A stretch of DNA of 64,000 nt from Mobula hypostoma (lineage: Eukaryota), in the NCBI RefSeq assembly GCF_963921235.1, contig NC_086097.1, positions 36,768,001 through 36,832,000 of the forward strand. Direction: 5' to 3'. The translations under genes were made by a program, and so were the position numbers. The notes below the pieces were generated by a model. The model searched no databases, was not told where the DNA came from, and saw nothing but the letters and a program-made list of their open reading frames with translations. How positions within the stretch are numbered: position 1 is the stretch's first letter; every line of letters starts with the position of its first letter. Shown here piece by piece: positions 6,925-58,950 of the stretch.

Positions 6925-8480
6925 CTCTAGACAGACAGAAATATCCATTTTGACTGCCATCAACTGATCATGTTGGCATTGATAATACACAAGTCGGGAG
7001 TGTGACTACATTTTCCATTTGCCTGGATGAATGCTGAACATCCAGAATAAAACATCACACTCGATAAGCTTCCCATTCACCACTAGCTCCCGTTACAAGG
7101 GTACCATGGCTGTAGTATGTACCATCTGAAAAAATGCACTACAACAGTTCACCTACATTTCTTCAACAGCATCTCCTATGTCTGTAACCTCTACTGGTCA
7201 GAAATAAATAGAGATTGCTGCACCACCACTTGTAAACTCCCCTCCAATTCAGGCACTTTCCTGAGCTTCAATATTCCCAGGGAATTAGCCCGGAACTCCC
7301 TTATCTAACAATACTAGAGGAGTACCATCATCACATGGGTTTCCAATGGTTTAAGCATCAAAACCTTCAAGACCAACTAAGGACTAGCATTTTATATTCC
7401 CCATGACAGTGCAATGTACACTCCCAAGCACAATAAGAAAACCTTATGAAGACTAATTTCATGTTAATCTAGGGCTATAAACTAATCTGGACAACTCAAA
7501 TAGTGTTGGCACTGCATCCTAAAACATTGCCCATCGGTCTTATCATCAAATTGAATTATCCTTATTGTCCTTATCAAATAGCCCATTCCTTTCATTCAAA
7601 ACTTTAATGAGTGATCAACATCTATCCTTGCAGACACAAGAGAGGAAGGTAAGAAGTAATTAATTCTGTCCAAATATGAATCAATATATGGCAATATATG
7701 GACATTTTTAGTTCTAAATTCCGCCCCCCCCCCCCGAAACAAAGATCTCAATCAACCTGCTATAGCTATAGCAAATTAAAAGGACATGGAAACTTTCTGG
7801 TCTGTACACCTCAGCAACCATCACTGGCAAAGCACTGTGGTTTGTAGGTTCTAAATTTCATAACAAGTCAACCCTTACCACACAATTAATGTTTGCTGAA
7901 AATTAGCTGTGAGGAGACTCATTATTGATTGAGCTGCTGCAATTTGTTATAATGCTGAAAACTATTATGTAATCAATTTCAATATCACATTCTTTGCTGC
8001 AATTTTTTATGCTAAGATTTAATAATTTCATATTAAAAGCTATGCTAAGCTCGACAACTCAAATCGTGCTGGGACAGCATTCCAAACCATTGACCGTCAG
8101 TCTTAACAGTCAAATCAAATTATGCTTATTGTCTTTATCAAATAGCTCAGATTTAATTTTGAAAGAATGTGTGTAGGAAGCAATTGTACACACAAGGTAT
8201 GATGTTTTCCCTGTCTTTGAACTGTAATATCACATAAAGTCATGTCATTGATGGGTCATGGACAATTTTGGCTTCTCTGCTTTGGTCACGAAAACTGTAA
8301 TGGGTTCTAGCATTTTAAAACCTCACTATTATGGACTGATCACCTTTAAAATAAAACTCACTATAGAATCACCATAAATTCCATGCAGCAAACCTGCGTG
8401 CACGCCTTTCAGAACTGCAAGAACAATGGTCAAGCGAATGTCAGAAGTCAGTTTGCGAATGTCATATATCAACAGCTTAC

Positions 8481-8825
8481 CCAGCCCTCAAAGGTTTTCG
8501 TGCCATTTTTCAGTAATTCCTCGAACTGCAAGGTGCAATTGGCCACAAAATCGTCGTATCCGATGGGGGTGTCATGAAAAACGGTCAGCTCGATCTCGCT
8601 GCTTCTCCAGATCTGAGTACTGAAGTCTTCGTTAAATGTGGGCCGGCTGGTCTTCTGTTTTGTGACTGTCTGCCCGACCCTCCGATTATCAATCTTTACC
8701 ATTACATACGGATCCAATAACTGGTAATTTTTGCTGGATATTGAATGCCTGAGAGCGCATCGGGTCGGTTTTAGATCCACAGCCTCTCCGATTTTCACCT
8801 TCAGAGGGCCACTGAAAAGCACCAT
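8481..8825 (-). CDS. PRKCH: Novel-class protein kinase C (eta/epsilon group; eta-like), first coding exon encoding the N-terminal C2 domain; gene continues toward lower coordinates
   Basis: MVLFSGPLKVKIGEAVDLKPTR..LRHS..QLLDPY..RVGQT.TKQKT..ELTVFHDTPIGYDDFVANCTLQFEELL..TFEGW, 115 codons; strong Kozak gcaaggATGg; ends TGG|gtaagc, a phase-0 donor at the same position as PRKCE/PRKCH exon 1. Family certain; eta versus epsilon versus third paralogue uncertain, so the symbol is a best guess. Confidence 0.93.
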
Positions 8826-8829
8826 CCTT

Positions 8830-9800: not shown

Positions 9801-10392
9801 AATCACAACATAGTATGTTGTTTTCTTTAAATATATTTATCGTGTGAGGGTGTTACTGGCAGGATAACCGATATTCCCTAATTACCTTAGAGAGGCGAGC
9901 TGCCTGTCAGAATAGCCGCAATTCCTGCCCCGATGGTAATCGTGACGATGGTGATGATGATATATATTTTCAAAACAGGATGGCTTGAAAAAGAACTTGG
10001 AACTTTTGCTCAACTGCTGCACAAAACTTTCTTGGCAGTAGAGCGCAACTTTGGGATGTGCCATTGAATGGACTTTGCAAGTTGTGCATGCGTAGAAGGT
10101 GCACTTTTGCAGCCATAGCAGCAGTCTAATTTGCCTATCACACCTACGATCATCATTAAAAGCCTATCTAGAGTAATTCCATTTGTTAGCACTTAATCCA
10201 TAGCCATTGGCAATTTTAAAACATGATTTTTATCTGCTTCCGCCACCACCTCGGGCAGTATGTTCCAGATTGCAACCATGCTGAAGGTGAAAACTTCATC
10301 CTTAGATCGTCTCTAAACCTTTTACACCTCGGCTTAAATCAATGCCCTCTGGTCTTTGATGCCTCTGCCATGGGCTAGTTTCTTATTGTCTA

Positions 10393-12595
10393 CAAACAAG
10401 GGAAAATCTGCAGAGGCTGGAAATCAAAGTAATACACACAAAATACTGGAGGAACTCAGCAGGCCAGGCAGCATCTATGACAAAGAGTAAACAGTTAATG
10501 GTTTGGGTTGAGACCCTTCATCAGGACTGGAAGAAAGAGATTAGAAGTCAGAGTAAGAAGGGTGGTGGGGGGAGGAAAGGAAGAAGTACAAGGTAGTAGG
10601 TGATAAGTGAAACCGGGACGGGGGAGGGGTGAAGTAAAGTGCTGGAAAGCTGACTGGTGAAAGAGATAAAGGGCTGGAGAAAGGGGATCTGGTGGAGAAG
10701 GACAGAAGGCCATAGGAAAAAGGGAAGGGGAAGGAGCACCAGACAGAGGTGAAGGACAGGTAAGGAGATAATGTGAGAGAGGGGAATGGGAATGGGAAAT
10801 GATGGGGGGGGAGGAATTACTAGAAGTTCGGGAAATTGATGTTCATGCCTTCAGGTCAGAGTGTACCCAGACAGAATATAAGGTGTTGCTCCTCCAACCT
10901 GAGTGTGGCCTCATTGCGGCAGTAGAGGACTGACATGTCAAAATAGGAATGGGTGGTAAAATTAAAATGAGTGGCTACCAGGAGATCCCATTTTTTGTGG
11001 CAGATGGAGTATAGGTGCTCAGCGAAGTGGTCTCCTAATCTACATCAGGTCTCACTGATATACAGGAGACAACACCGGGAGCACCAGAAACAGTAGATAA
11101 GCCCCAAACACTCACAGGTGAAGTGTCACCTCGCCTGGAAGGACTGTTTGGGGCCCTGAATGGTAGTGAGGGATGAGGTGTAGGGGCAGGTGCGGCACTT
11201 GTTCTGCTTGCAAGTGCCAGGGGGAGATCAGTGGGGGGGGGGGAACAACTAATGAGGGAGCTGCATAGGGAGCGATTCCTGCGGAAAGCAGAAAGTGGAG
11301 GGGAGGGAAAATGTGTTGGTGGTGGGATCCTGTTGGAGATGGTGGAAATTACGGAGAAATATGTGCTGGCGCAGAGGCTAATGGAGTGGTAGGTGAGGAC
11401 AATTGGAATGTTATCCCTGGTGAGGTGGCGGGTGGATGGGGTGAGGGCAGACATTAGTGAAATGGAAGAGATGTGTGTGAGGGCTGCTTTGATGGTGGAG
11501 GAAGGGAAGCCACTTTCTTTGAAGAAGGAGGACACCTCATCAATTCTGGAATGAAAAGCCTCCTGAGACCAGATGCAGCGGAGATGGAGGAATTGAGAGA
11601 AGGGAATTTCATTTTTTCAAGTGACAGGGCAGGGGAGGTAGCTGTAAGAATTATAAAAGATATTCGTGGAAAAGCTGTCTCTAGAAATAGAGGCAGAGAG
11701 TTCGAGAAAGGGGAGGGAGTTGTTGGAAATGGACCAGGTAAATTTGAGGTTAGGGTGGAAGGTGGCAAAGTTGATGAAGTCGACGAGCTCAACATGGGTG
11801 CAGAAAGCAGTACTAATGCAGTCATTGATGCAGCGTAGGGAAAAGTTGGCGAGTGATACCAGTGTAGGCTTGGAACATAGATTGTTCCACGTATCTGACA
11901 AAATGGTTGGCATAGCTGAGATCTGTGCAGGTGCCTATGGCTACACATTTTGTTTGAAGGAAGTGGGAGGAGCCAAAGAAAAAATTATTGAAAGCGTGGA
12001 CCATTTGTGAAAGACGGAGGAGAGTGGTGGTGGAGGGGAATGGGTTGGGTCTGGTGTCCAGAAATAAGCAAAGGTCTTTGAGGCCTTCCTGACGGGTGAT
12101 GGAGGGATAGTGAAAATAAGATGATCAGGGCCAGGGAACTTGAAGTCATTGAAAAGATCAAGAGCATGTGAAGTGTCATGGATGTAGGTAGGAAGAAAAC
12201 CGGGGGCGGGGTGGAATAAAACAGAATCAAGTTATGCAGATGTAAGTTTGTTGGGGCAGGAACAAGCAGAAACAATGGGTCTACCTGGACAGTCAGGTTT
12301 ATGGATTTTGGGAAGGAGCAAGAAATGGGAAGTGCAGGGTAAGAGAACTATGAGGTTGGTGGCAGTGGACGGGAGATCTCCAGAGTTAATAAGGTTAGTG
12401 ATGGTGCGGATGACAATGGCCTGGTTCTCCTTAGAGAGGTCTTATTCAAGAGGTAGATAAGAGGAGATGTCTGGGAATTGTCGCATGGCCTCAGCAAGGT
12501 AGAAGTCAGTCCACCAGACTACTACAGCACCCCTCCACTTATCTGTAGGTTTGATGGTGAGGTTGGGATTAGTGTGGAGAGCAATGCATTTGGAA
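10393..12595 (-). mobile_element. Penelope-like element (Neptune-like), decayed RT + GIY-YIG region and terminal repeat
   Basis: Minus-strand fragments NNFFFGSSHFLQTKCVAIGT..SYAN.FV, LRCIND, FINFATFHPNLKFTWSIS..LPFLE are typical PLE RT motifs; terminal repeat with degenerate hammerhead at about 10492-10528. Confidence 0.85.
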
Positions 12596-12699
12596 TCTAT
12601 TCTATTCCTGCCACATAAACCTCTATCACCCCCTATGGCCTCTTCTGCTCCAATGAAATTCAGTTGCTCCTGATTTAGATTAGGTTAGATAAGATAAAT

Positions 12700-23572: not shown

Positions 23573-26500
23573 TTACAGCATGGAAACAGGCCATCTCAGC
23601 CCTTCTAGTCCGTGCCGAATGCTTACTCTCACCAAGTCCCACCGACCCGCACTCAGCCCATAACCCTCCATTCCTTCCCTGTCTATATAGCTATCCAAAT
23701 GTACTTTAAATGACAATATCGAGCCTGCCTCTACCACTTCTACTGGAAGCTCATTCCACACAGCTACCACTCTCTGAGTAAAGAAGTTCCCCCTCATGTT
23801 ACCCCTAAACTTTTGCCCTTTAACTCTCAACTCATGTCCTCTTGTTTGAATCTCCCCTACTCTCAATGGAAAAAGCCTATCCACGTCAACTCTGTCTATC
23901 CCCCTCATAATTTTAAATAACTCTATCAAGTCCCCCCTCAACCTTCTAGACTCCAAAAAATAAAGACCAAACTTGTTCAACCTTTCTCTGTAACTTAGGT
24001 GCTGAAACCCAGGTAACCTTCTAGTAAATCTTCTCCGTACTCTCTCTATTTTGTTGGCATCTTTCCTATAATTCGGTGACCAGAATGGTACACAATACTC
24101 CAAATTTGGCCTTACCAATGCCTTGTACAATTTTAACATTACATCCCAACTCCTATACTCAATGATCTGATTTATAAAGGCCAACATACCAAAAGCTTTC
24201 TTCACCACCCTATCCAAATGAGATTCCACCTTCAGGGAACTATGCACCATTATTCCTAGATCCCTCTGTTCTACTGCATTCTTCATGCCCTACCATTTAC
24301 CATGTATGTCCTATCATTTACTATGTATGTCCTATTTTGATTAGTCCTACCAAAATATAGCACCTCACACTTATCAGCATTAAACTCCATCTGCCATCTT
24401 TCAGCCCACTCTTCTAACTGGCCTAAATCTCTCTGCAAGCTTTGAAAGCCTACTTCATCATCCACAAACGCCACCTATCTTATTATCAGAATCAGAATCC
24501 TTTATTATCGCCAAGTATGTGGACACATACAGGGAACTTGATGCCGGTTTCCCTCAGCTCTTGCTGTACAGAATCAAAAAGCAAATGAAACAATAGTACA
24601 AATAATTGTGAACTATATACAATGAGGTATACCTGTGTATGTACAGGTGGACTTGGTTTATAATAGACTAAAATTCAAGTGTTCATAAGACTGATGGCAT
24701 CTGTATATTTACTAATCCAATTTACCACCCCATCATCCAGATCATTAATGTATATGACAAACAACATTGGACCCAGTATGGGTCCCTGAGGCACACCACT
24801 AGTCACCGGCCTCCAACCTGACAAACAGTTATCCACCACTACTCTCTGGCGTCTTCCATCCAGCCACTGTTGAATCCATTTTACTACTTCAATATTAATA
24901 CCTAACAATTGAACCGTCCTAACTAACCTTCCGTGTGGAACCTTGTCAAAGGCCTTACTGAATCCATATAGACAACATCCACTGCTTTACCCTCGTCAAC
25001 TTTCCTAGTAACCTCTTCAAAAAATTCAGTAAGATTTGTCAAACGTGACCTTCCATGCACAAATCCATGTTGACAGTTCCTAATCAGACCCTGTCTATCC
25101 AGATAATTATATATACCATCTCTAAGAATACTTTCCATCAAATTACCCACCACTGACGTCAAACTCACAGCCCAATAATTGCTAGGTTTACTCTTAGAAC
25201 CCTTTTTAAACAATAGATCAACATGAGCAATACGCCAATCCTCCGGCACCATCCCCTTTTCTAACGACATTTGAAATATTTCTGTCAGAGCCCCTGCTAT
25301 TTCTACACTAACTTCCCTCAAGGTCCTAGGGAATATCCTGTCAGGACCCGGAGACTTATCCACTTTTATATTCCTTAAAAGCACCAATACCTCTTCTTTA
25401 ATCATCATGGTTTCCATAACTTCCCTACCTGTTTCCCTTACCTTACACAATTCAATATCCTTCTCCTTAGTGAATACCAAAGAAAAGAAATTGTTCAAAA
25501 TCTCCCCCATCTCTTTTGGTTCCACACATATCTGTCCACTCTGATTCTCTAAGGGACCAATTTTATCCCTCACTATCCTTTTGCTATTAATATTACTGTA
25601 GAAACCCTTTGGATTTATTTTCACCTTACTTGCCAAAGCAACTTCGTATTTTCTTTTAGCTTTTCTAATTTCTTTCTTAAGATTCTTTTTACATTCTTTA
25701 TATTCCTCAAGCACCTCATTTACTCCATGCTGCCTATATTTATTGTAGATATCTCTCTTTTTCCGAACCAAGTTTCCAATATCCCTTGAAAACCATGGCT
25801 CTCTCAAACTTTTAACCTTTCCTTTCAACCGAACAGGAACATAAAGATTCTGTACCCTCAAAATTTCACCTTTAAATGACCTCCATTTCTCTATTACATC
25901 CTTCCCATAAAGTGGAGTGTCCCAATCCACTCCTTCTAAATCCTTTCGCATCTCCTTAAAGTTAGGCTTTCTCCAAACAAAAATCTCAACCCTGGGTCCA
26001 GACCTATCCTTCTCCATAATTATATTGAAACTAATGGCATTGTGATCACTGGACCCGAAGTGCTCCCCAACACATACCTCCATCACCTGACCTATCTCAT
26101 TCCCTAACAGGAGATCCAACACTGTCCCTTCTCCAGTTGGTACCTGTACGTATTGCTGCAAAAAATTATCCTGCACACATTTTACAAATTCCAAACCATC
26201 CAGCCCTTTTACAGTATGGGCTTCCCAGTCTATATGTGGAAAATTAATATCTCCCACAATGACAACCTTGTGCTTACTACAAATATCTGCTATCTCCTTA
26301 CAAATTTGCTCCTCCAATTCTTGCTCCCCATTAGGTGGTCTATAATACACCCCTATAAGTGTTACTACACCTTTCCCATTCCTCGATTCCACCCAAATAG
26401 CCTCCCTAGACGAGCCCTCTAATCCATCCTGCCAGAGCACCGCTGTAATATTTTCTCTGACAAGCAATGCAACACCTCCCCCTCTTGTCCCTCCGATTCT

Positions 26501-26690
26501 ATCACACCTGAAGCAATGAAATCCAGGAATATTTAGTTGCCAATCACACCCCTCCTGTAACCATGTTTCACTAATAGCTACCACATCATACTTCCAGGTA
26601 TCAATCCATGCTCTAAGCTCATCCACCTTTCTTACAATGCTCCTAGCATTAAAATAAATCCATTTAAGAAATTTTCCATGTCTTACTCTC
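23573..26690 (-). pseudogene. CR1 ORF2 (APE endonuclease + reverse transcriptase), frameshifted and interrupted
   Basis: 567-aa ORF with ISETWL, RGGGVA, GVYYRPP, GDINFP, SDHN, KSPGPD; then SGVPQG..LF.IYINDLD and KALVRPNLEYC..RRLRGDL. Confidence 0.93.
24488..24697 (-). mobile_element. LINE 3'-tail insertion with (GATTCT)n end inside CR1 RT
   Basis: atcagaatcagaatcctttatt... interrupts the SKY.D|DxKIGG region of the CR1. Confidence 0.7.
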
Positions 26691-26787
26691 TGTTTATCAC
26701 TAATGGTGCAAACAACTTTACTATCTCCTTTTTCTTCCTTCTCCCCTACATCTGTTCCTACACTCTGGTTCCCCTCCCCCCCTGTAT

Positions 26788-27298
26788 CTAGTTTAAATCC
26801 ATTGGAGCCTCTCTAGCAAACCTACCTGCAAGAATATTTGTCCCCCTCCAGTTCAGATGTAGACCATCTCGCCGGAACAGGTCCCATCTTCCCTGGAAAA
26901 CTGCCCAATTATCTATAAATCTGAAGCCCTCCCTCCTGCACCATGTCTTCAGCCATGTGTTGATCTGCACTATCTTACTATTTCTAAACCCGCCTGCATG
27001 TGGCACTGGTAGCAATCCTGAGATTGCCATCCTGGAGGTCCTGTCCTTTAACTTGGCGCCTAACTCCCTGAACTCACCTTTCAGGACCTCCTCATTCTTC
27101 CTACACACGTCATTGGTCCCTACATGGACCACGACATCTGGCTGCTCACCCTCCCTCTTGAAATACTGAGAACTCGATCTGAGATATCGTGGTCCTTGGC
27201 ACCAGGGAGGCAACAGACTATCCGGGATTCTCCATCTCTTCCACAGAACCTCTTATCTGTCCCCCTAACTATCGAATCCCCTATCACTACTGCTCTTG
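26788..27298 (-). pseudogene. CR1 ORF1 SGNH/GDSL esterase domain remnant
   Basis: AVVIGDSIVRG, CCLPGA, VVVHVGTND, RDGLHLN: the SGNH blocks typical of CR1 ORF1. Confidence 0.9.
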
Positions 27299-29610: not shown

Positions 29611-30029
29611 AGTCTTCGAGTCAGTGCAGAGTGATGGGAATGTGCGATCCACTGAGGTTGGATGGGACTACAACTCCAAGACATGGGTTAAGGGTGAAAG
29701 GTGAAAAGTTTAAAGGGAACATGAGGGGAAACTTCTTCACTTAGCAGCACCTGCTCTTGAGTCAGAGACAAGTTGGGTGATGTTACAGAGATGTAAGTGG
29801 ATAAGTTTGGTGGTGGATCAAATATATGTTTAATGGTTCAGCTCAGCATCAAATATGATACCAATGTTTAGTGCAGCTTAGTTCGTTGTCATAGTTGCCA
29901 AGGAGAGGATGGAGAACTAAGTTTTGATAAGGAGCAAAGTCAAATCCTTCTTCTGTTTCTAGATCTTGCAGGAAATTTCTATTCTTCAACAATTCGATGG
30001 TTCCTTCAACAAACTGGAAAGAAGAGTAA

Positions 30030-31285
30030 CCATGGCAGAAAGGGAAGGAGGAGGGGCACCAAGGGTGATAGGAAGGTGAGGAGAAGAGCTAAGAGGCCAG
30101 AATGGAGAATTGAAGCTGAGGGAAGTAGGAATGGGAAAATAAAATTACAGGAAGTTGGAGAAATCAATGTTCACGCCATCAGGTTGGGGGCTATTTGGAT
30201 GGAATATGAGGTGTTGTTCCTCCAACCTGAGGGTGGCCTCATCATGGTACAGGAGGAGGCCACGGACCAACATGTTGGAACAGGAACAGGGAGTGGAATT
30301 AACATGGTTGGCTACCAGGAAACCCTGCTTGTTGATCGGAGGTGCTCGACAAAGTGCTCCCCCAAACAACATCGGATCTCACGAATGTAGCGGAGGCTGT
30401 ATTAGGAGCAACAGATACAGTAGACTACCCCAACATATTCACCGTTGAAGTGTTGCCTCACCTGGAAGGACTGTTTGGGGCCCTGAATGTTGGTGAGGGA
30501 GGAGGTGAATGGGCAGGTGTAGCACTTCTGCTGCTTGCAGGAGGGAAATCAGTGGGAATGGATGAATGGATAAGGAAATTACAGAGGGAGCGATCCCTGT
30601 GAAAAGTAGAGAATGGGGGGGGGGGGGGAATGAAGTAAAGATGTGTTTGGTTGTAGGGTCCCGTTGAAGATAGTGGAAGTTGTGGAGAATGATGTGCTGA
30701 ATGCAGAGGCTCAAAGGATGGTAAGTGAAGACAAGAGGAACGCTATCTCTCTATCCCTGTTCAGGTGATGCGAAGACGGGGTGAGCGCAGATGTCTGGGA
30801 AATGGAGGAGATACAGTTGGAGACAGCATCAATGATGGAAGAAGGGAATCCCTGTTCTTTGAAGAAAGATATCTTGGATTTCCTTGAACGGAAAACCTCA
30901 CTCTAGGAACTTACGCGGCAAAGACAAAGGAACTGAGAAAAGTGAATGTTATTTTTTACAGGAGAAAGGGTGGGAAGAGTTAAAGTAAAGATAAACGTGT
31001 GAATCGGTAGGTTTATAAAAGATGTCAGTAGACAGTTGGTCTCCAGAGATGGAGACAGAGTGTTCAAGAAAGGGGAGAGAAGTGTCAGAAATGGAACAAG
31101 TGAATTTAAAAGTAGGGTGGAAGTTGGAGGCAAAGTTGATGAAATTGACGCGCTCAGTGTGGATGCCCATGGCAACACCTTGAGTTTGGAGAAAGAGGGA
31201 GATAATGTTGAGGGTGAGAACCAGTTCTACCAGACAGAGGAGGGTGGCGGTGGAGGGAAATTGGTCAGGCCTGTTGTTGCACCTG
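30030..31285 (-). mobile_element. Penelope-like element fragment (same family as 10393-12595)
   Basis: FLQTQGVAMG..FINFASNFHPTFKFTCSIS..LPFLE..TDIFYKPTDSH. Confidence 0.88.
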
Positions 31286-32029
31286 ACATTAAGATTTTGG
31301 AGAATAAAGGGCAATAAACACTGGAGTTTATAGTGTGAGGCTGGGAAAAGAATCGCAGATAAAAAAACAAATGCACAACTTTAACCTACATCTGAAATTT
31401 GTTGTTTACACTCTCTCTAATCTTCTATCAATCAAATAAAAACATGGTTTAAGGCTCTGATATAACATGGAAAGAGCTACACATGACGAATGTGATTCAA
31501 AATCAAACCACCATTTAAACTGAGTGTGCCCATTACTCAGTTCTATTGCCAGGAATAGAATATACAGAAACAAACACAGCATTTTGTCAGACAGTAGATG
31601 GTCTTGGGACACAAACCTCCAAGATTTAGTTAATTTTCTAGTATTTTGAAATCTACAGCAATTCTGACTTTCAAACCTAGAATAACTTAAGCCGAAAGGG
31701 TTATTGCAAATGAAAATAAAATCGCCCAAATATCATTTATTTACAGGATGGGGGGGGGGAGAAGGAAGAGGGGGAAATCAGGAAAATGCTATTGGAAAAG
31801 ACTTAGATAAGGTAAATGGGAAACAAAGGAGAGAGTAAAATAAAGTAAAAGATGTTTGTGAAAATGAAGTATATAATAGAAATAGGGAGAAGCAGAGGGA
31901 AACATAGAAAGGAAACATATTTGAGGGAATATTGTTCTATGTAGGTATTAGATAAATATTCTTGAGAGTGTGAAATTAACACAAAAGGAAAAAGAATGAG
32001 AGAGGGTAGAAAATTCTGTTCATTTTAGC

Positions 32030-41790: not shown

Positions 41791-43991
41791 GGGCTGGGGA
41801 AAGGGAAGTTATTATGTAAGTAGATGCAGTGTGTAGTGAGACTGTGAGGAAGGACAGGTAGATCACAGGGGGAAAATTGCGATTAGTGGAATGAGTTGAA
41901 GTGTAACACAGGGGCAAAATCGAAAGGGGCAAAGACTGCAGGACTGAAAATTCACCCAGAAATATAAGAAGGAGAAGCTAAAGTCAAGCATATCAGTATT
42001 ACAGTGGAATAAAGGGCATGAAAGAGGAGTTGGCTAAAACTGATTAGAAAAGAACACTGGCAGGGATGACAGCAGGGAAGCAATGGCTGGAATTTCTGTA
42101 AGCAATTCGGAAAGTGGAGGATATATACATCCCAAAGAAGACGTATTTCAAAGGCAAGATGACACAGTCGTGATTAACAAGAGAAGTCAAAGTCAACATA
42201 AAAGCCAATTAGTGGGAAGTTAGAGGATTGGGAAGCTTTTTAAAATGGACAGAAGGTAACTGCAAAAGCCATTAGTAAAAGATGGAATACAAAAGCGAGG
42301 TAACCAATAAAATTAAAGAGATATCAAAAGTTTCTTCAGATCTATGAAGTGTAAAAGAGAGGCAAGAATGGATATTAGACTGCCGGAAAACAATGATGGG
42401 GAGGTAGTAATGGGGGACAAGGAAATAGCGGATGAACTGAATACGTATTTTGCTTCAGTCTTCACTGTGGTAGACACTAGCAGTATGGTGGAAGTTCCAA
42501 TGTGTCTGGGCTCAGAAGTGTATGAAGCTGCCATTACTTGGTTCTTGAGAAACTAAAAGGTCAGTCACCTCAACCAGATGGTATACACCCATGGGTTCTG
42601 AAAGAGGTGGCTGAGGAGATTATGGAGGCATTAGTAATGACCCCTCAAGAATCACTAGATTCTGGAGTAGTTCCAGAAGACTGGAAAATTACAAATGTCA
42701 CTCCACTCTTCAAGTAGGGAGAGAAGCAGAAGAAAGGAAACAATAGGCCAATCAGTCTGACCTCAGTGGTTGGGAAATTGTTGCAGTTGATTGTTAAGGA
42801 TGTGGTTTTGGGGTACTTGGAGGCGCATGATAAGAAAGACCCTAGTCGGTGTGGTTTCCTCAAAGGAAAATCTCACCTGACGACTCTGTTGGAATACTTT
42901 GAAAATGTAACAAGCAGGAAAGAGCAAGGAGAATCAGTGGATGTTGTGTACTTGGATTTCCAGAAGGCATTTGACAAGGTGCGCCACATATGAGGCTGCT
43001 TAACAAGCTACAAACCCATTGTATAACAGGAAAGGTACCAGCATGGATAAAGCAGTGGCTGATTGGCAGGAGGCGAAGAGTGGGAGTAACAGTAGCCTTT
43101 TCTCATTGGCTGTCAGTGACTAGTGCGGTTCCACAGGGATCTATGTTGGGACTGATTCTTTTTACATTATATGTCAATGATTTGGATGATGGAATTGATG
43201 GTTTTCTTGCAAAGTTTGTGGATGATACGCAGATAGGTGGAGGGGCATGTAGTTTTGATGAAGTAGAAAGGCTACAGAAGGACTTAGACTGATTACAAGA
43301 ATGGGCAAAGAAGTGGCAGACGGAATATAGTGCCAGGAAATGTATGATCATACACTTTGGTAGGAGAAATAAAAGGGTTGACTACTTTCTAAATGGAGAG
43401 AAAATACAAAAATGTGAGGTGCAAAGGGACTTGGGAGTCATTGCGCAGGATTTCCTAAAGGTTAATTTGCATGTTAAGTCTGTGGTGAGAAAGATAAATG
43501 CAATATTAGCATTCACTTCAAGTGGATTAGAATATAAAAGCAAGGATGCAATGTTGAGACTTTATAAAGCACTGGTGGGGCCTCACTTGGAGTATTGTGA
43601 ACAGGTTTGGGCCCCTTATCTTAGAGAGAATGTGCTGAAACTGGAGAGGGTTCAAAGGAGATTCACGAAAATGATTCCAGGATTGAATGGCTTGTCATAT
43701 GAAGAGCATTTGATAGCTCTGGGCCTGTATTCATAGAATTCAGAAGAAAGAGGGGTGACCTATTTGAAACCTATAGAATGTTTGAAAGGCTTTGATAAAG
43801 TGCATGTAGAGAGGATGTTTCCTGTGATGGAGAATCTAAGACCGGAGAACAGATCCTCTGAATGGAAGGGTGTCTTTTTAGAACAGAGATGAGGGGACAT
43901 TTCTTTTGCAAGAGAATGGTGAATCTTGGGAATTCATTACCACAGGCAGCTGTGGAGGCCAAGCCTTCATGTATATTTAAGTTCTTCAGTT

Positions 43992-44027
43992 AGTCCTGAC
44001 GAAGGGTCTCGGCCTGAAACGTCGACT
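43992..44027 (+). ncRNA. Minimal type I hammerhead ribozyme motif, copy 1 (predicted cleavage after 44023)
   Basis: Stem I AGUC/GACU, core CUGACGA(+A), stem II GGGU-cucg-GCCU, GAAA, palindromic ACGU, GUC site. Confidence 0.7.
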
Positions 44028-44296
44028 GCGCTTCTTCCTATAGATGCTGCCTGGCCTGCTGCGTTCACCAGCAACTTTGATGTATGTTGCTTGAATTTCC
44101 AGCATCTGCAGAATTCCTGTTGTTTGCGTTTAAATTCACTACTGCGAAGCCTCTTCCGGTGATGCCTACACCGAAGAAGTTTGGATCCTCTCTTCGACGG
44201 GAGTTCAGTGAAACCATCCCTCACTGCTCCCCATCTGTGATTTCTTCGGCTCTTCAACTTTTCGACCAGACTTTGACTCAAACTCTTCCTTCAGTT

Positions 44297-44332
44297 AGTC
44301 CTGACGAAGGGTCTCGGCCTGAAACGTCGACT
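44297..44332 (+). ncRNA. Minimal type I hammerhead ribozyme motif, copy 2 (predicted cleavage after 44328)
   Basis: Identical to copy 1, 305 nt downstream. Confidence 0.7.
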
Positions 44333-44956
44333 GCGCTTCTTCCTATAGATGCTGCCTGGCCTGCTGCGTTCACCAGCAACTTTGATGTATGTTGCATGTA
44401 TATTTAAGGCAGAGTTTGATAGATTCTTGACTGATCAGGGCATGAAGGGAAACAGGGAGAATGCAGAAGGTTTTGGCTGATCAGCCACGATGAAATGACA
44501 GAGCAGACTCGATCTGCCAAATGGCCTGATTCTGCTCCTATATCTTATGGAATATGAAAGTGTTATATTGGAATGCATACAGTATATGGGACAAGGTAGA
44601 TGATCTTACAGCGTAGTTAGAGATAGACAAATATAATGTTGTGGGCATCACTGAGTTATGGCAGAATGAAGATCATTGCTGGGAGCTTAATGTAGTTTAA
44701 CATCCAAGGATACACTTTGTATCAAAAGGCAGGTAGGCATAGAGGGTGGGGTGGCACTGTTGGTTAAAAAATGTAATCAAATCCTTAGAAAGCAATGACA
44801 TAGGATCAGAAGATATAGAATCCTTGTGGTTAAGTTCAGAAACGCTTGGGTAAGAAGACCAGGACAAGAGTTGTACACAGGCCTCTGATAGCTGCCCAGG
44901 ATGTGGGATACAAATTATGTGGGAGATATAAAAAGCATGTAAAAAAGGCAATGTTA

Positions 44957-46145
44957 CCATAAGACCATAATCTATAGGAGCAGAATTAGTCCACTTGCCC
45001 CTTCATGCCTACTCCGTCATTTCATCATGGCTGATCCAATATTCCCCTGAGAACCGTGATGAGGAGGCATTCTCCTGCCTTCTCCCCGTATTCCTTCATG
45101 CCCTGACCAATCAACAATCTATCAACCTCCACCTTAAATATACATAAAGGTTTGGCCTCCACAGCTGCCTGTGGCAAAAGAATTCCACAGACTCACCACT
45201 CTCTGGCTAAAGAAATTCCTCTGCATGTCCTTTTAAAGGACAACCCTCTATTCTGAGGCTGGGTCCTCTGGTTTTAGACTCTCCCACCATAGGAAACATC
45301 CTTTCTGTCAAGGCCTTTCACCATTTGATAGGTTTCAATGAGGTCACCCCTCATTCTTCGGAATTCTATGAATACAGGCCCAGATCCATCAAATGCTCTT
45401 CATATGACAAGCTGTTCAATCCTGGAATCATTTTCCTTTGGACCCTCTCCAGTTTCAGCACATCCTTCCTAAGATAAGGGGCCCAAACCTGCTCACAATA
45501 CTCCGAGTGAGGACTCACCAGTACTTCATAAAGTTTCAACATTATATCCTTGCTTCTATATTCTAATCCACTTGAAATGAATAATAACATTACAATTGCC
45601 TCCCTCACCACAGGCTCAACCTGCAAATCTTCAGAGAATTCTACACAAGGACTTCCAAATCTGCTTGCACCTCAATTTTTTGTATTTTCTCTCCACTTAG
45701 AAAATAGTTAGCCCTTACATTTCTTCTACCAACGTGTGTGACCATACACTTTGACACTGTTTTCCATCTGCCATTTCTTTGCCCATTCTCCTAATCTTTC
45801 TAAGGCCTCTGCAGCCTCTCTACTTCCTCAAAACTACCTGCCCCTCCACCTACCTTCATATCGTCTGCAAACTTTTCAACAAAGCCATCAATTCCATCAT
45901 CCAAATCATTGATGTATAATGTAAAAAGAACTGGTCCCAACACAGACCCCTGTGGAACACCACAAGTCACCAGCAGCCAGCCAGAAAAGGCTCCCTTCAT
46001 TCCAATTCTTTGCCTCCTTCCAACAGCCACTGCTTTATCTGTGCTAGACTTTTTAATGTAATACCATGGGCTCATAGCTTGCTAAACAGCCTCACGTGTG
46101 ATGCCTTGTCAAGGCCTTCTGAAAGTCCAAGTACACAACATCAAG
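44957..46145 (-). mobile_element. Nested CR1 3' segment in antisense orientation
   Basis: CGVPQGSVLGPVLFTLYINDLDDG..KFADDMKVGG; tail ccataagaccataa on + strand. Confidence 0.92.
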
Positions 46146-46740
46146 AGATTCACATTAGTCATGGGGGATTTCAATATCCAGATAAATTGGGAAAATTAGG
46201 TTGGTGCTGGTTCCCAAGAAAGGAATTTGTAAAATGCCTATGAGCTGACATTTTGGAACAGCTATAGTTGAACCCACTAGGGGATCAGCTATTCTGGATT
46301 GGGTGCTGTGTAATGAATCAGATTTGATTAGGGAGCTTATGATAAAGGAACCCTTAGGGAACAGTGATTATAATATGATAAAATGCTCCTGCAGTTTGAG
46401 AGGAAGGAGATAAAGTCAGATGTATCGGTCTTGCAGTGGAGTAGAGGAAATTTCAGAGGCATGCTTGAGAGAGCAGATGCTGAAATTTATTGGAAGGGGA
46501 CTCTAGCAGGGATGATGGCAGAGCGGAAGTGGCTGGATTTTCTGGAGGCAATTCAAAAGCCGGGGATAGATACATACTAAAAATTAAGAAGAATTCGAAA
46601 GGGAAGATGAGGCAACCGTAGATGACAAGGGAAGTTTAAAACAGTATATAATATAGCAAACATAAGTGGCAAGTTAGAGGATTGGAAGCTTCTAAGAACC
46701 AACAGAAGGCAACTACCAAGCCATTAGAGAGAATAGATGA

Positions 46741-47380: not shown

Positions 47381-50300
47381 AAATATGAAGGTAAAAGTTA
47401 GCCAATACTATAAAACAGGATGTGAAAAGATTATTTTAGATATATAAGGAGAAAAAGAGTCGAGAATAGATAACAGACCACTGGAAAATGAAGAGATAGT
47501 AATGGCAGGGGGGCAGAGAATAAGTATTTTGTGCCACTCTTCACTATGGATGGTGCTAGAATATAAAAGCAGGGATGTGATGCTAAGGCTTTATTAGGCA
47601 CTGGTTAGATGACATTTAAGTAAGCAGTTTTGGGCCCCTTATCTAAGAAATGATGTGCTGGCATTGGAGAGAGGGGGGTTCACAAGAATGATTCCAGGAA
47701 TGAAATGGTTAACATATGAGGAGTGTTTGATGGCTCTGGACCGGTACTCATTGGAATTTTGAAGAGTGGGGGGTATCTCATTGAAACTTATCAAATGTTG
47801 AAAGGACTGGATAGAGTGGATGAGGAGAGGATGTTTCCTATACCAGGTGAGTCTAGAACCTGAAGGCACAGCCTCAGTATAGCGGGATGACTATTTACAA
47901 CTGAGATGAGGAGGAATTTTTTTATCCAGGGGGTAGTGAATCTGTGGAATTCATTGCCAAGGATGTCTGTGGAGGCCAAGTCATTGGGAATATTTAAATC
48001 AAACATTGATAGGTTCTTGATTAATCAGGTGTCAAAGGTTACAGGGAGAAGGCAAGAGAATAGGATTGAGAGGGAAAATAAATCAGCCGTGATGGAATGC
48101 CAAAGCAAACTCGCGGGCCAAATGGGCTAATTCTGCTCCTATGTCTTATGGTCTAAAATTCAAAACATACCAAATGATTTGGATGGATTACATCACCAAA
48201 ATTAATGACAGTCAAAGGAGAAAAAGTAACATGAATGCATAAAGGAGGGAGTCATAAGATTCATAAAATTCTTCCCTTTACAATTTAAAGCACTCCCTTG
48301 AAATCAATAACAATTGGTGCAGTTGTTTCTTAAGAAGTCCTTACAAAACGAATTCGAGCAAGTCAGGTCCAAAGACAGTGTGAAGACAATGTTTTATTCT
48401 TGTGACTATCCAAATGAAATGTTTGTGTTTATGTGTAATTTGAATCATCCTTAAGAACATGGAAATATACTGACTGATGTAATCAATCTCATTTCAGTAA
48501 ACACTTCAATGCATTGAGGCAAATGCAAAATTAAGAGTTTTTTTGTATAATATTCGAGCACTTTAGTTTCCAAACTCAGAGATTCAGGCTGACGATCTCA
48601 AGAGTGGTTCAAGAACAGTGAAACCTCCAGAGCTTTCATGTCTTAATTACTTACTGTGGACTTCAGTGTATATTTAATATGTATTGGGTTCTAAATTACA
48701 GTGCAAAAATGGAAATTTAAGTAAAATACTTCATAATATTTGGCCTCCACTGTTTAAGACAAATGAAGCAAATCTTATTAGCTGTTATATAACATTGCAC
48801 ATTAAGATGTTTGCACTCACATTTGGACCCAATAAAATCACCTGGCTTCACTGAGTTTTAAATGCAAAAGATAGATTGAGTTTTTGGAGGAACTGGTTTC
48901 AATGTGTAATAAACTCCTGTACAATTGTACAGTGAAGTCAGAAGCAGTTTGCTTTCAGGCTGCCTACAGCAGCACAGATGTGCCATTAATAGCATTCTTT
49001 GACTCTGCTTAGTTTTTACAGGATTGCTAACAAGACTCTAGTATTAGAATTGGTTTATTATTGTCACGTGTACCAAGATACAGTTAAAAGCTCAAATGGT
49101 TATGCAGTGCATCAAGCTAGAATAAGGTATAACAATAATAATGTCATGGAATAAATCATAAATACTATTTAAAAAGTGCAGTGCAGGTAAATGGTGAAGT
49201 GCAAGATCGTAACAAGGCAGATTGTGAGGCCAGGAGTATATCTTATCCTACAGGAGGTCTGTTCCAGACTGATAAGAGTGGGATAGTATATTGGTGCTCA
49301 GATTATTCCTTTGATTTTACCTTTGGATATTGGATGAGATTGGGATAAACAGGAACAAACATTTTACTTGCTATCCTAGGAGTCAACCGGGTCTAGTATT
49401 TGAAACCAAGGATCAGGTCATTGTATACAGTGTTAGGATGCAAGCACTAGATGGCACCATTGCTTTTATAAATGAACAGGAAGCATCCATTTGCACAAAA
49501 GCCATGGCTTTAAACTAACTTTTTAACCTTCAATTGTCATATCTTAATTTCTGAAATACTCAACTTGTGTTATTTTTTAAAATTCAGTTTTTGAGATTTG
49601 AGTCCTAGTTGGCAAGCCTGCTAATCTCCAGTTACCCTTGAAATTAACTGTTTGTTAGACCATTTAAGAGCCAACTGTGCAGGCAAGCTGGAGTCACGTA
49701 CGGGCCAGATCAATTAAGAGCGGCAAATTTCATCCCCAAAAGGCACTGATGAAGCTAGTTGGGTTTCTAATACAAACTGGTAGCTTTTGCAGACACCATT
49801 AGTAAGAATGATTGTTATTCTTTCCCTTTTCTGGGCTATTTATTTATTTTTGTCATTTATAGCAATTTTATATCTTGCAATATACTGCGGCTGAAAAACA
49901 ACTAATTTCATGTCTACAAGTCATTGATAATAAATAGAATTCTGATTCTTTTCCAAATGCCAGGTTATTAAATTCCATAGCTATCAATACAGGAACTGAA
50001 CACAGGTCTCTGGATTCATATCCAATAATGTAACTGTTGTGCAATTTCTTGGCGATGACATTTCATTTGGGTTTCTTAATCACCACCCAGTTTCATTGTC
50101 ACTAACATCACTGAGATGTCTCATCAAGACTGTTACTCCATTATGTTCATACACCACTGCAATACCAAATGCTCACCTTCACTTAGCTTGGCTATACGGA
50201 TAAGCTGAAAGGACTGTGTCTATTAATTTTTAAATATGCGCGCTCTTAGAGGTAACCTGATAGAGCTTATAAACAACAAAAGCGCTGAATATGCTATATT

Positions 50301-50639
50301 TTGATGGACTATTCCTGTTTGATATTTGGGGGAAATCAAAGAAGGAATGGGATGATGCTTGAGGTTCTTTCCCATGAGAGAAGGGAGCCTCCAAAGTTAC
50401 TCGATGAACAATGTGGAAATGTACGCCCAGAGGCTTTTACTTTGGACCACAGATTCCAACGTATCAGGTGTAAATGGATTAATAGGTGACCAACACATGA
50501 TTTGTGTTATCTACTGGGCTTTTTTTTTAAATCATCTTAAGGTGAAAGACAAGGACTTTTTCCTACATTTTTCCCTTATTCCCTTTTTCATCTCTTCTTG
50601 TAAATGAAATTGTAATATGGAGGGACGAAAAATATCCTG

Positions 50640-51033
50640 CAATACACATCAAAGTTGCTGGTGAACGCAGCAGGCCAGGCAGCATCTCTAGGAAGAGGTA
50701 CAGTCGACGTTTCAGGCCGAGACCCTTCGTCAGGACTAACTGAAGGAAGAGCTAGTAAGAGATTTGAAAGTGAGAGGGGGAGGGGCAGATCCGAAATGAT
50801 AGGAAAAGACAGGAAGCGGAGGGATGGAGCCAAGAGCTGGACAGTGATCTCCCCCTCCCCCTCCCACTTTCAAGTCTCTTACTAGCTCTTCTTTCAGTTA
50901 GTCCTGACGAAGGGTCTCGGCCCGAAACGTCGACCGTACCTCTTCCTAGAGATGCTACCTGGCCTGCTGCGTTCACTAGCAACTTTTATGTGGGTTGCTT
51001 GAAATTCCAGCATCTGCAGATTTCCTTGTGTTT
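50640..51033. mobile_element. Young Penelope terminal repeats in inverted orientation (about 150-bp arms) with hammerhead motifs on both strands
   Basis: About 50639-50791 is complementary to 50846-50998; hammerheads at 50702-50737 (-) and 50900-50935 (+); TSD-like aaatatcctg (50630-50639) / aaatattctg (51039-51048). Confidence 0.9.
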
Positions 51034-52192
51034 ATGAGAAATATTCTGTCTGGATAAAATTGGGGCAGGCTTAGCATACCTGTCTTGGACTTTCCCACCT
51101 CTCTTTTACATGTTTATTACTTCTATTTTTCTTTGTGTCAAAGAAATCTAATCGCTTCTACAATTAAAAACAGAAATTCCTATTCTGCATTACTTAGATT
51201 AATATTTTCAAAGCAATCTATTATTAAGTGTTCAAAGTCAGCTGGCCAGTTGGGGATATGTGCTGATTCTATATTCTTGTCATACTTAAGGGCTTCTGTC
51301 TGTTATTAGGGGACTTGGTTATGCAGCAAGCTGGTGACAGAACACAGAGTGTTCAGAAGCTAACCTGTGCTTACTTTTCCCCCCACACACCAAGTCGTCA
51401 ATCTAGCCTCAGTCATCAAAGGAAGCCAAAGAACACAGTTGGATGCTATCCAAGAGGAATGCAGATCAGAGGAAGGAAAAACAAATCTATAGGATCCCTG
51501 AAGACAATCATGACAAAGATGTTTCTGAACAATGTCAATTAATCAACATTCAAAGGCCAATATTCAAGAGTAACCTGATGGCTTTGTAATGAATATGCAG
51601 TTATGATGTTTGAGTGACGAAAAATGGCAAATTTAATGTTTAAAATGACTTTTTAAAATGTTTGTGTTTGTTTTCAATTAATTCAGGGGAACTAGATGGT
51701 GCTGTTGAGGCCAGGGTTTCTTGTCTATCCCCAATTGCCATGTACCAAGAAGTTTGCACATCCAGGGCTGTGAGGCTGGAGTCACATTTCGGCCAAACCA
51801 GGCATTTTCAGAACCAGATTTCATTCCCTAATGACTATATACTGTACATAGAACAATTTGGCCCACAATATTATGCTGTACCAATTAAATCAGTGACACT
51901 TTGTTCCTTCTGCCTGCACACTGTCTATATTCCCCTGTTCTCTGCATATGAATGTGACTATTTGAGATTCAACTACAATCCAGTAGTTTCATTATAACTA
52001 TTACTGATAATTGTTTTCCCTTCCAGACTTAGTTAATTAAGCACAGAAGCAATTTCAATACCAGCCCAAATCTTTGCTTTGCCATGTCACCTGTGAACAA
52101 TCTCCAAAGTTTACATTAAGTATAGTTACAGTCATATCCTTTTCCAACAGTGTAGAACCTATGGTAGGAGAAAGCCTATGAAACATCACTGT

Positions 52193-57949: not shown

Positions 57950-58950
57950 GAACATGAGAGATTCTGCAGATGCTGGACATCCAAAGCAACACATTGAAAA
58001 CTAAGAAGAAAACCTAGATGCTGGAAATCCGAGCAACATGCGCAAAATGATGGAGGAACTCAGCAAAGTCAGGCAGCAACTTTGGAAATGAACAAAGAGT
58101 TGATGCTTTGGGCCTAAACCCTTCTTTAGGACTAGAAAGGAAAGGGGAAGATGCCAGAATAAAAAAGTAGAGGAGGGGATAGGAGGATAGCTAGATGGTG
58201 ATAGGTGAAGCCAGGTGGGTAGGAAAGGTAAAGGGCTGGAAGGAATTTGATAAGAGAGGAGCAGGAAGAGGGGACCCGGGGGAGATGCTAGACTGGTGAG
58301 AAGAGGTAAGTGCCAGAGTGGGGAATAGAAGAAGAGAGGAGGGGGAGAATTTTTTTTTACTGGAAGGAGAAAATGATATTCAGCCATCAGGTTGGAGGCT
58401 ACCCAGACAGAATATAAATGTAAATAGAGGGTCACCTCATCGTGGCACAAGAGGCAGCCATGGACTGACATGTTGGAACAAGAATGGGAATCAGAACTAA
58501 AATGTTTGGCCACCGGTAAGTTCTGCTTTTGACTGAGATAGTGTTCAATGACGTGGTCCCCCAATTTATGATGGATCTCACCAATGTAGAAGAGGCCACA
58601 TTGGGAGCTGTGGACACATTAGACGACCTCAGCAGATCCTCAGGTGAAGAGTTGCCTCACCTGGAAGGACCGTTTGGGCTCTGCATGGAGGTGAGGAGGG
58701 AGGTGAACGGGCAGGTGTAGCACCGGCCACATGCAGGGATAAGTGCCAGGAAGGAGGTTAGTGGAGAGAGATGAATGGACAAGGGAATCATGGAGGGGGC
58801 GATCACTGTGTAAAGTGGAGGGGGGGGTATCTAAAGATATCCTTATGATAGGATCCCTTTGAAGATGGCAGAGACTGTGGGGAATGATATTTTGGACGTG
58901 GAGGCTCATTGGGTGGTAGGTAAGGACAAGAGAAACTCTATCACTGTTAA
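57950..58950 (-). mobile_element. Penelope-like element 3' fragment (GIY-YIG region + terminal repeat)
   Basis: PKRSFQVRQLFT, GDHVIEH..LPVAKHF..SHS; collinear with 10393-11420. Confidence 0.85.

Follow-up and report, generated by a model that had tools for sequence, protein, structure and literature searches.

Is the 413-bp insertion at this locus a mobile circular-RNA system in its own right, as a preliminary description proposed, or a derivative of the retrotransposon that supplied its hammerhead motifs? Within the window, by which we mean the whole 64-kb stretch of DNA analysed, the insert occupies positions 43982-44394 on the plus strand. Its direct repeats (43984-44090 and 44289-44395) agree over 107 bp with 0 mismatches at a spacing of 305 nt, which makes them the longest exact repeat in the window (the runner-up measures 39 bp), and each holds a hammerhead motif with an intact core, just as the preliminary description had it. 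Its account of a 413-bp insertion with a perfect target-site duplication (TSD) likewise holds: the word CATGTATATTTAAG at 43968-43981 returns at 44395-44408 with a 14/14 match (79% A+T), and base 44395 is both the last base of the repeat and the first base of the TSD. We put a probability of roughly 0.6 on the reading that the insert is a copy of an abundant Penelope-like element (PLE) with an internal deletion, likely produced in a single insertion event when the element's own reverse transcriptase (RT) jumped on its template. The parts on which the argument draws are these:

43968-43981, plus strand: left TSD, 14 bp, inside the 3' end of a CR1-type LINE
43982-44090, plus strand: first pLTR copy, 5'-truncated, equal to the second copy from 43984
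43992-44027, plus strand: minimal type I hammerhead motif 1, predicted cut after 44023
44091-44125, plus strand: optional PLE tail of 35 nt, recognised by alignment with relics
44126-44161, plus strand: short leader, 36 nt between tail and ATG
44162-44285, plus strand: ATG and first 41 codons of an ORF, matching residues 1-41 of protein P0005
44283-44285, plus strand: deletion junction with the 3-nt microhomology CTC, where codon 41-42 is fused to the 3' pLTR
44283-44394, plus strand: second pLTR copy, with a tail-less 3' end 66 nt past the predicted cut
44297-44332, plus strand: minimal type I hammerhead motif 2, same as motif 1, predicted cut after 44328
44395-44408, plus strand: right TSD, copy of the left

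The insert interrupts the tail of a LINE for which we use CR1 as the presumed family name. Once the insert is removed, the flanks align without a break to the sister CR1 copies at 45491-44965 and 47625-48151. In the printed alignment the target word occurs singly in the sister copy 45491-44965, so the TSD was truly duplicated on insertion. An assembly artefact that joined two pLTR-containing reads would be conceivable in a family this extremely repetitive, and none of the contigs listed from public runs spans the stretch; however, a perfect TSD of a word that is single in the sister copy and a 3' end common to other relics both speak against such a join, which we regard as very improbable. The insert is young, with 0 differences over the 107 + 14 bp of repeat and TSD, in agreement with the preliminary description. 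That description also called the CpGs intact, which is borne out by an observed/expected ratio of 0.80 in the insert versus 0.31 in the window, but not at hammerhead position 11.1, which is T in both motifs (44015 and 44320) whereas 6 of the 7 other aligned relics have C.

The surroundings hold further elements. The host copy (42926-44550) and its neighbour at 44965-46156 lie in inverted orientation and match at 77-93% in pieces over ~1.1 kb. An endonuclease ORF of the host-LINE kind (24926-26812, 629 aa) belongs to a CR1-type LINE of almost full length at 23573-27252 (minus strand); the short frame that precedes this ORF (26788-27252) is presumably SGNH esterase-like. The minus strand at 8472-8828 has an open frame in which Pfam identifies a C2 domain (PF00168); it looks like the opening coding exon of a protein kinase C of the novel type, presumably PRKCH, and the insert lies ~35 kb upstream of it.

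Both motifs read AGUC-CUGACGA-A-GGGU(CUCG)GCCU-GAAA-CGUC^GACU, with stem I (AGUC/GACU), CUGACGA, a bulged A, a 4-bp stem II closed by G-U, GAAA and the palindromic ACGU. They carry the core of the minimal hammerhead (C3-U-G-A-N-G-A9, G12-A-A-A15.1 and U16.1-H17) together with the bulged base before stem II and the palindromic 15.2-16.2, and they fit the PLE minimal hammerhead as described by Cervera and De la Pena 2014 (PMC4209133), so that the earlier identification of Penelope-type minimal hammerheads closing helix III only as a dimer was correct. Rfam returned no match at gathering thresholds and only chance matches at E up to 10, and it holds no model matching the minimal hammerhead motifs of the insert. 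Cutting at the two predicted sites would give a 305-nt monomer with 49% G+C. With T at 11.1, both motifs replace the conserved G10.1-C11.1 pair with G10.1-U11.1, and the stem II hairpin is predicted at -2.0 versus -3.7 kcal/mol; a U-U mismatch at 10.1-11.1 can still permit cleavage (PMC3088659). Since it is common to both copies, T11.1 was probably already present in the template.

Judged by sequence, the 107-bp repeat is the pLTR of a very abundant PLE, and the insert matches 11 other places in the 64-kb window at E up to 0.006. Truncation leaves its first pLTR with 10 nt upstream of stem I, or 42 nt upstream of the predicted cut. The tail-less 3' end of its second pLTR is common to other relics in the window, which fall into two 3'-end classes 35 nt apart: of the 9 rows aligned, 4 stop short of the tail, 3 include all of it, 1 breaks off part-way and 1 ends still earlier. 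The 35-nt tail is present in the relics at 50893 and 10528, and those at 50745, 36867 and 29240 stop just before it. A PLE tail has been described (PMC8557442), and Frangieh et al. 2024 (PMC11167929) relate it to two internal sites at which RT can start; the tail-less end of the insert is likely an RT initiation site.

One pLTR match immediately follows the remains of an ORF on the minus strand (10390-12600). This ORF can be aligned with P0002, a protein of Hypanus sabinus in which Pfam finds only a sub-threshold RVT_1 match; the decayed frames of the window relic gave no Pfam match. The broken frames of 10390-12600 hold RT, a CxxC linker and a GIY-YIG-like motif, the last two read by eye, and the linker and the GIY-YIG-like motif point to the Neptune type (PMC8557442). 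This relic continues into a pyrimidine-rich 3' UTR and then a hammerhead pLTR. A second longer decayed PLE relic with RT, CxxC linker and GIY-YIG-like motifs lies at 29900-31300 (minus strand), and another PLE relic at 57961-58134 (minus strand) has the tail twice in tandem (matches 58134-58016 and 57991-57961). At 50627-51048 there is a head-to-head PLE insertion of the same family as the insert, with an inverted tail-less arm at ~50640-50791 (minus strand) and a direct arm with tail at 50846-51033; it is flanked by imperfect 13-bp duplications with 2 mismatches, and hammerhead position 11.1 is T in one arm and C in the other.

Between the two pLTRs, the insert contains the tail, a leader that is likely the element's 5' UTR, and a start codon at 44162, from which a shark (Hemiscyllium) protein annotated as 'mucin-2-like' (P0005, residues 1-41) is matched at 56% identity over 41 codons; the likeness ends at the insert junction. 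The species of P0002 and P0005 suggest a cartilaginous fish as the host of the insert. We infer that these 41 codons are the start of the parent PLE ORF, the same ORF that encodes the RT. The preliminary description had reported no RT coding, which is right as far as RT itself is concerned but overlooks this ORF start. A word-indexed protein search with the 53-aa spacer frame gave no match, and a full HMMER search gave 3 (P0003, P0004 and P0005), of which P0003 and P0004 were dropped, since both are proteins made of tandem repeats that reached their scores over 11 and 3 separate stretches, respectively. ESM Atlas and Pfam offered no usable family for P0005, no longer proteins bearing its N-terminus were found, and protein, relic and locus searches yielded no single record that joins a P0005-like N-terminus to RT.

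The spacer is covered, as repeated sequence, in all 4 public runs examined (X1, X5, X6 and X14). In X1 its summed depth is ~1e5 versus 4-8e6 for the pLTR, figures that do not represent copy numbers. Contigs 12 and 13 of X14 run from 44105 and 44108 to 44187, leading from the tail into the ORF start with only ~20 letters on the tail side. On these alignments we read the spacer as the 5' end of the parent element and not as new sequence. All 413 bases of the insert then trace to the repeated element, as pLTR, tail, leader, 41 codons and pLTR.

What removed the rest of the element? Elsewhere, for instance in the relics at 50751 and 50886, a pyrimidine-rich 3' UTR leads into the pLTR, and the same kind of sequence lies upstream of loose ends at 44281-44283 (45, 48, 51 records in X1; 42, 41 in X5), while contig 31 of X6 tracks the ORF side to 44285 and then departs. 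With 3' UTR in place before 44283 on one side and ORF sequence to 44285 on the other, the two sides overlap in CTC. Measured back from a predicted cut site, the junction is 44-46 nt away and the 5' end of the insert 42 nt. The two breakpoints thus coincide to within 2-4 nt on the pLTR, at a place just upstream of the hammerhead.

This coincidence bears on the idea that a full-length pLTR-ORF-pLTR insertion later lost nearly its whole ORF through microhomology-mediated DNA repair. The 3-nt microhomology would suit such an event, which has been proposed to have disabled many Penelope copies of Adineta vaga (PMC3846280), and the TSD and identical repeats are equally expected from it. However, repair has no reason to end 2-4 nt from the pLTR position at which the insert itself begins, and so young an insert leaves little time for a second event; we consider this origin unlikely. 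A deletion end that coincides with a 5'-end position argues for a jump of the RT more than for later repair.

Under the preferred reading, that of a PLE copy shortened by its own RT, the PLE protein would nick AT-rich DNA and the RT would start within its RNA template, at a point 66 nt downstream of where the hammerhead is cut. After passing an uncut or religated hammerhead, it would stall 12-14 nt upstream of stem I and, through CTC, jump to codon 41-42 in the upstream unit, so that the region coding for RT and endonuclease is left out. The RT would then copy the ORF start, the tail and the upstream hammerhead; a second stall, 10 nt upstream of stem I, would mark the point at which the cDNA is joined to the target. 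The two hammerheads would be inherited pLTR motifs brought to a spacing of 305 nt by the deletion. Any self-cleavage of the insert would probably be weak, and its structure does not require it. Indeed, for the PLE studied by Frangieh et al. 2024 (PMC11167929), unprocessed RNA was the dominant insertion substrate in vitro, cleavage-dead hammerheads of an anole PLE did not impair insertion, the ribozyme needed the PLE protein, and no RNA reads were found to end at the cut site. Microhomology-bounded internal deletions and 8-10-bp TSDs are known from PLEs as well (PMC3846280).

Alternatively, the insert could belong to a small non-autonomous PLE-derived family, that is, a non-LTR retrozyme; the parent RT would then have gone 1.35 rounds along a template that was either a 305-nt monomer, excised by the double hammerhead and ligated into a circle, or the uncut transcript of a previous deleted copy. 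We hold this as a tentative possibility. The length of the monomer and its 49% G+C fit the 170-400 nt RNAs with G+C under 50% of non-LTR retrozymes (PMC7229834), PLE-derived retrozymes with a mean consensus of 363 bp have been reported in one chondrichthyan genome (Li, Clavereau and Pollet 2026, bioRxiv 10.64898/2026.07.22.740005), both core boxes are intact, and identical repeats in a product of more than unit length are expected from a circular template in the model of PMC4209133. By our analysis, though, a circle has no advantage over a linear uncut template in accounting for the identical repeats. On a 305-nt circle, a random second stop would fall within 4 nt of the junction with a chance of ~3/100. 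The coincidence of the breakpoints speaks against a repair deletion but only mildly against a mini-element: if the upstream edge of the hammerhead is a general RT-stop hot spot, coincident stops would also be predicted in a later copy of a mini-element.

A family of such units should be represented by other copies of the junction, but among the 32 contig pieces listed of 133,242 (15/327 joints listed) none bridges it, and pattern scans for the junction and the ORF start in metagenome contigs, where vertebrate repeats are not expected, were empty. Both results are weak evidence; the run contigs come from material whose species identity with the window host is not established, and contigs drop rare variants. 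A hammerhead pattern scan and locus searches in viral contigs, where vertebrate repeats are likewise not expected, were also empty. The base G44183 of the insert is nearly absent from the runs (depth 9/81,790 in X1, 72/19,586 in X5 and 0 in X6 and X14), which weighs against a family only if the runs are of the same species. The insert spans 1.35 units of 305 nt, and TRF detected no tandem array in it, with the parameters of Li et al. included. Reads across a 44328->44024 joint would not by themselves be diagnostic of a circle, because the joined sequence equals that of every ordinary genomic pLTR. No run listed as containing insert sequence is on record as RNA; X14 is probably DNA, whereas X6 may be RNA.

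The fold of the RNA bears on the same alternative. As the preliminary description held, the insert can be drawn as a double hammerhead in a nested fold. For the insert, ViennaRNA puts this fold 25.8 kcal/mol higher than the most stable one (20.8-29.7 across four folded stretches). We set this cost aside as evidence against activity, since most of it (18.8 kcal/mol) arises from the two motifs alone in a model that ignores core contacts. The spacer is not tuned to the dimer fold (46/60 shuffled spacers cost the same or less), and the predicted circular 305-nt monomer is only modestly more stable than 60 shuffles (z -1.9). These figures, together with G10.1-U11.1 in both motifs, stand against a mini-element that replicates through a circle, as do the published tests, in which minimal-hammerhead dimers cleaved weakly (PMC4209133) and only 1/9 Xenopus retrozyme dimers cleaved (Li et al. 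2026).

The likeness of the insert to PLEs is extensive. It shares with them the minimal type I hammerhead with bulged A and palindromic 15.2-16.2 (PMC8557442; PMC11167929), direct pLTRs in partial tandem, the optional 35-nt tail, 5' truncation and an AT-rich target with TSD, and the window's longer relic adds a CX2-5CxxC-like linker before a GIY-YIG-like region. Unlike PLEs, its ORF is reduced to 41 codons, its pLTRs lie 305 nt instead of about 3 kb apart, and its position 11.1 is U and not the conserved C. It resembles PLE derivatives described by Arkhipova et al. 2013 (PMC3846280) in being TSD-flanked with an internal microhomology-bounded deletion, but differs in that its pLTRs are direct and the deletion end coincides with a 5'-end position.

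The insert also falls within a retrozyme definition based on two or more hammerheads 150-450 nt apart in a non-coding low-G+C unit, its coding content being an ORF stump only. With metazoan non-LTR retrozymes it shares two type I hammerheads ~300 nt apart, the lack of coding capacity and G+C under 50% (Cervera and de la Pena 2020, PMC7229834), as well as a long TSD, PLE origin and a cartilaginous-fish host (Li et al. 2026). In contrast to them, it falls below two complete units and has no TRF-detectable tandem (the survey of Li et al. 2026 starts from TRF arrays), and its hammerheads are of the minimal PLE type, whereas circle-making retrozymes have the canonical type. The proposal of a separate mobile circular-RNA system therefore finds no support, as every base of the insert derives from the parent PLE, it comprises 1.35 units, and no listed contig bridges its junction.

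A literature search for Penelope, hammerhead and elasmobranch found no paper on this combination; Li et al. 2026 covers one chondrichthyan, and its supplements may list the family. Since PLE-derived retrozymes in a chondrichthyan, with the argument for their PLE origin, are already in print there, the insert would be at most one more example or a founder. The unit does keep the parts that a non-autonomous element needs, namely the 3' end, the hammerhead and the ORF start. That it is a retrozyme caught at birth, formed through the stalling and jumping of RT, is nevertheless doubtful in our estimate.

The insert is best filed as an internally deleted Penelope-like copy, which could at most be a retrozyme founder. 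On the preferred reading, it arose as a by-product of a retrotransposon already known and is of value chiefly because it records the start and stall points of Penelope RT; its 350-nt dimer would in addition be a convenient natural substrate to test cleavage by the minimal PLE hammerhead with or without PLE protein. If the insert cleaves, circularises and is recopied, it would represent a retrozyme arising from a PLE in one step. Li et al. 2026 proposed the link between PLEs and retrozymes because the two occur together and from the phylogeny of pLTRs; the portion consulted sets out no mechanism. A birth by RT stalling and jumping, if true, would give the proposed PLE origin of animal retrozymes a concrete mechanism, and a PLE-rich genome would be a nursery of founders, each with its own junction and unit length, a few of which amplify.
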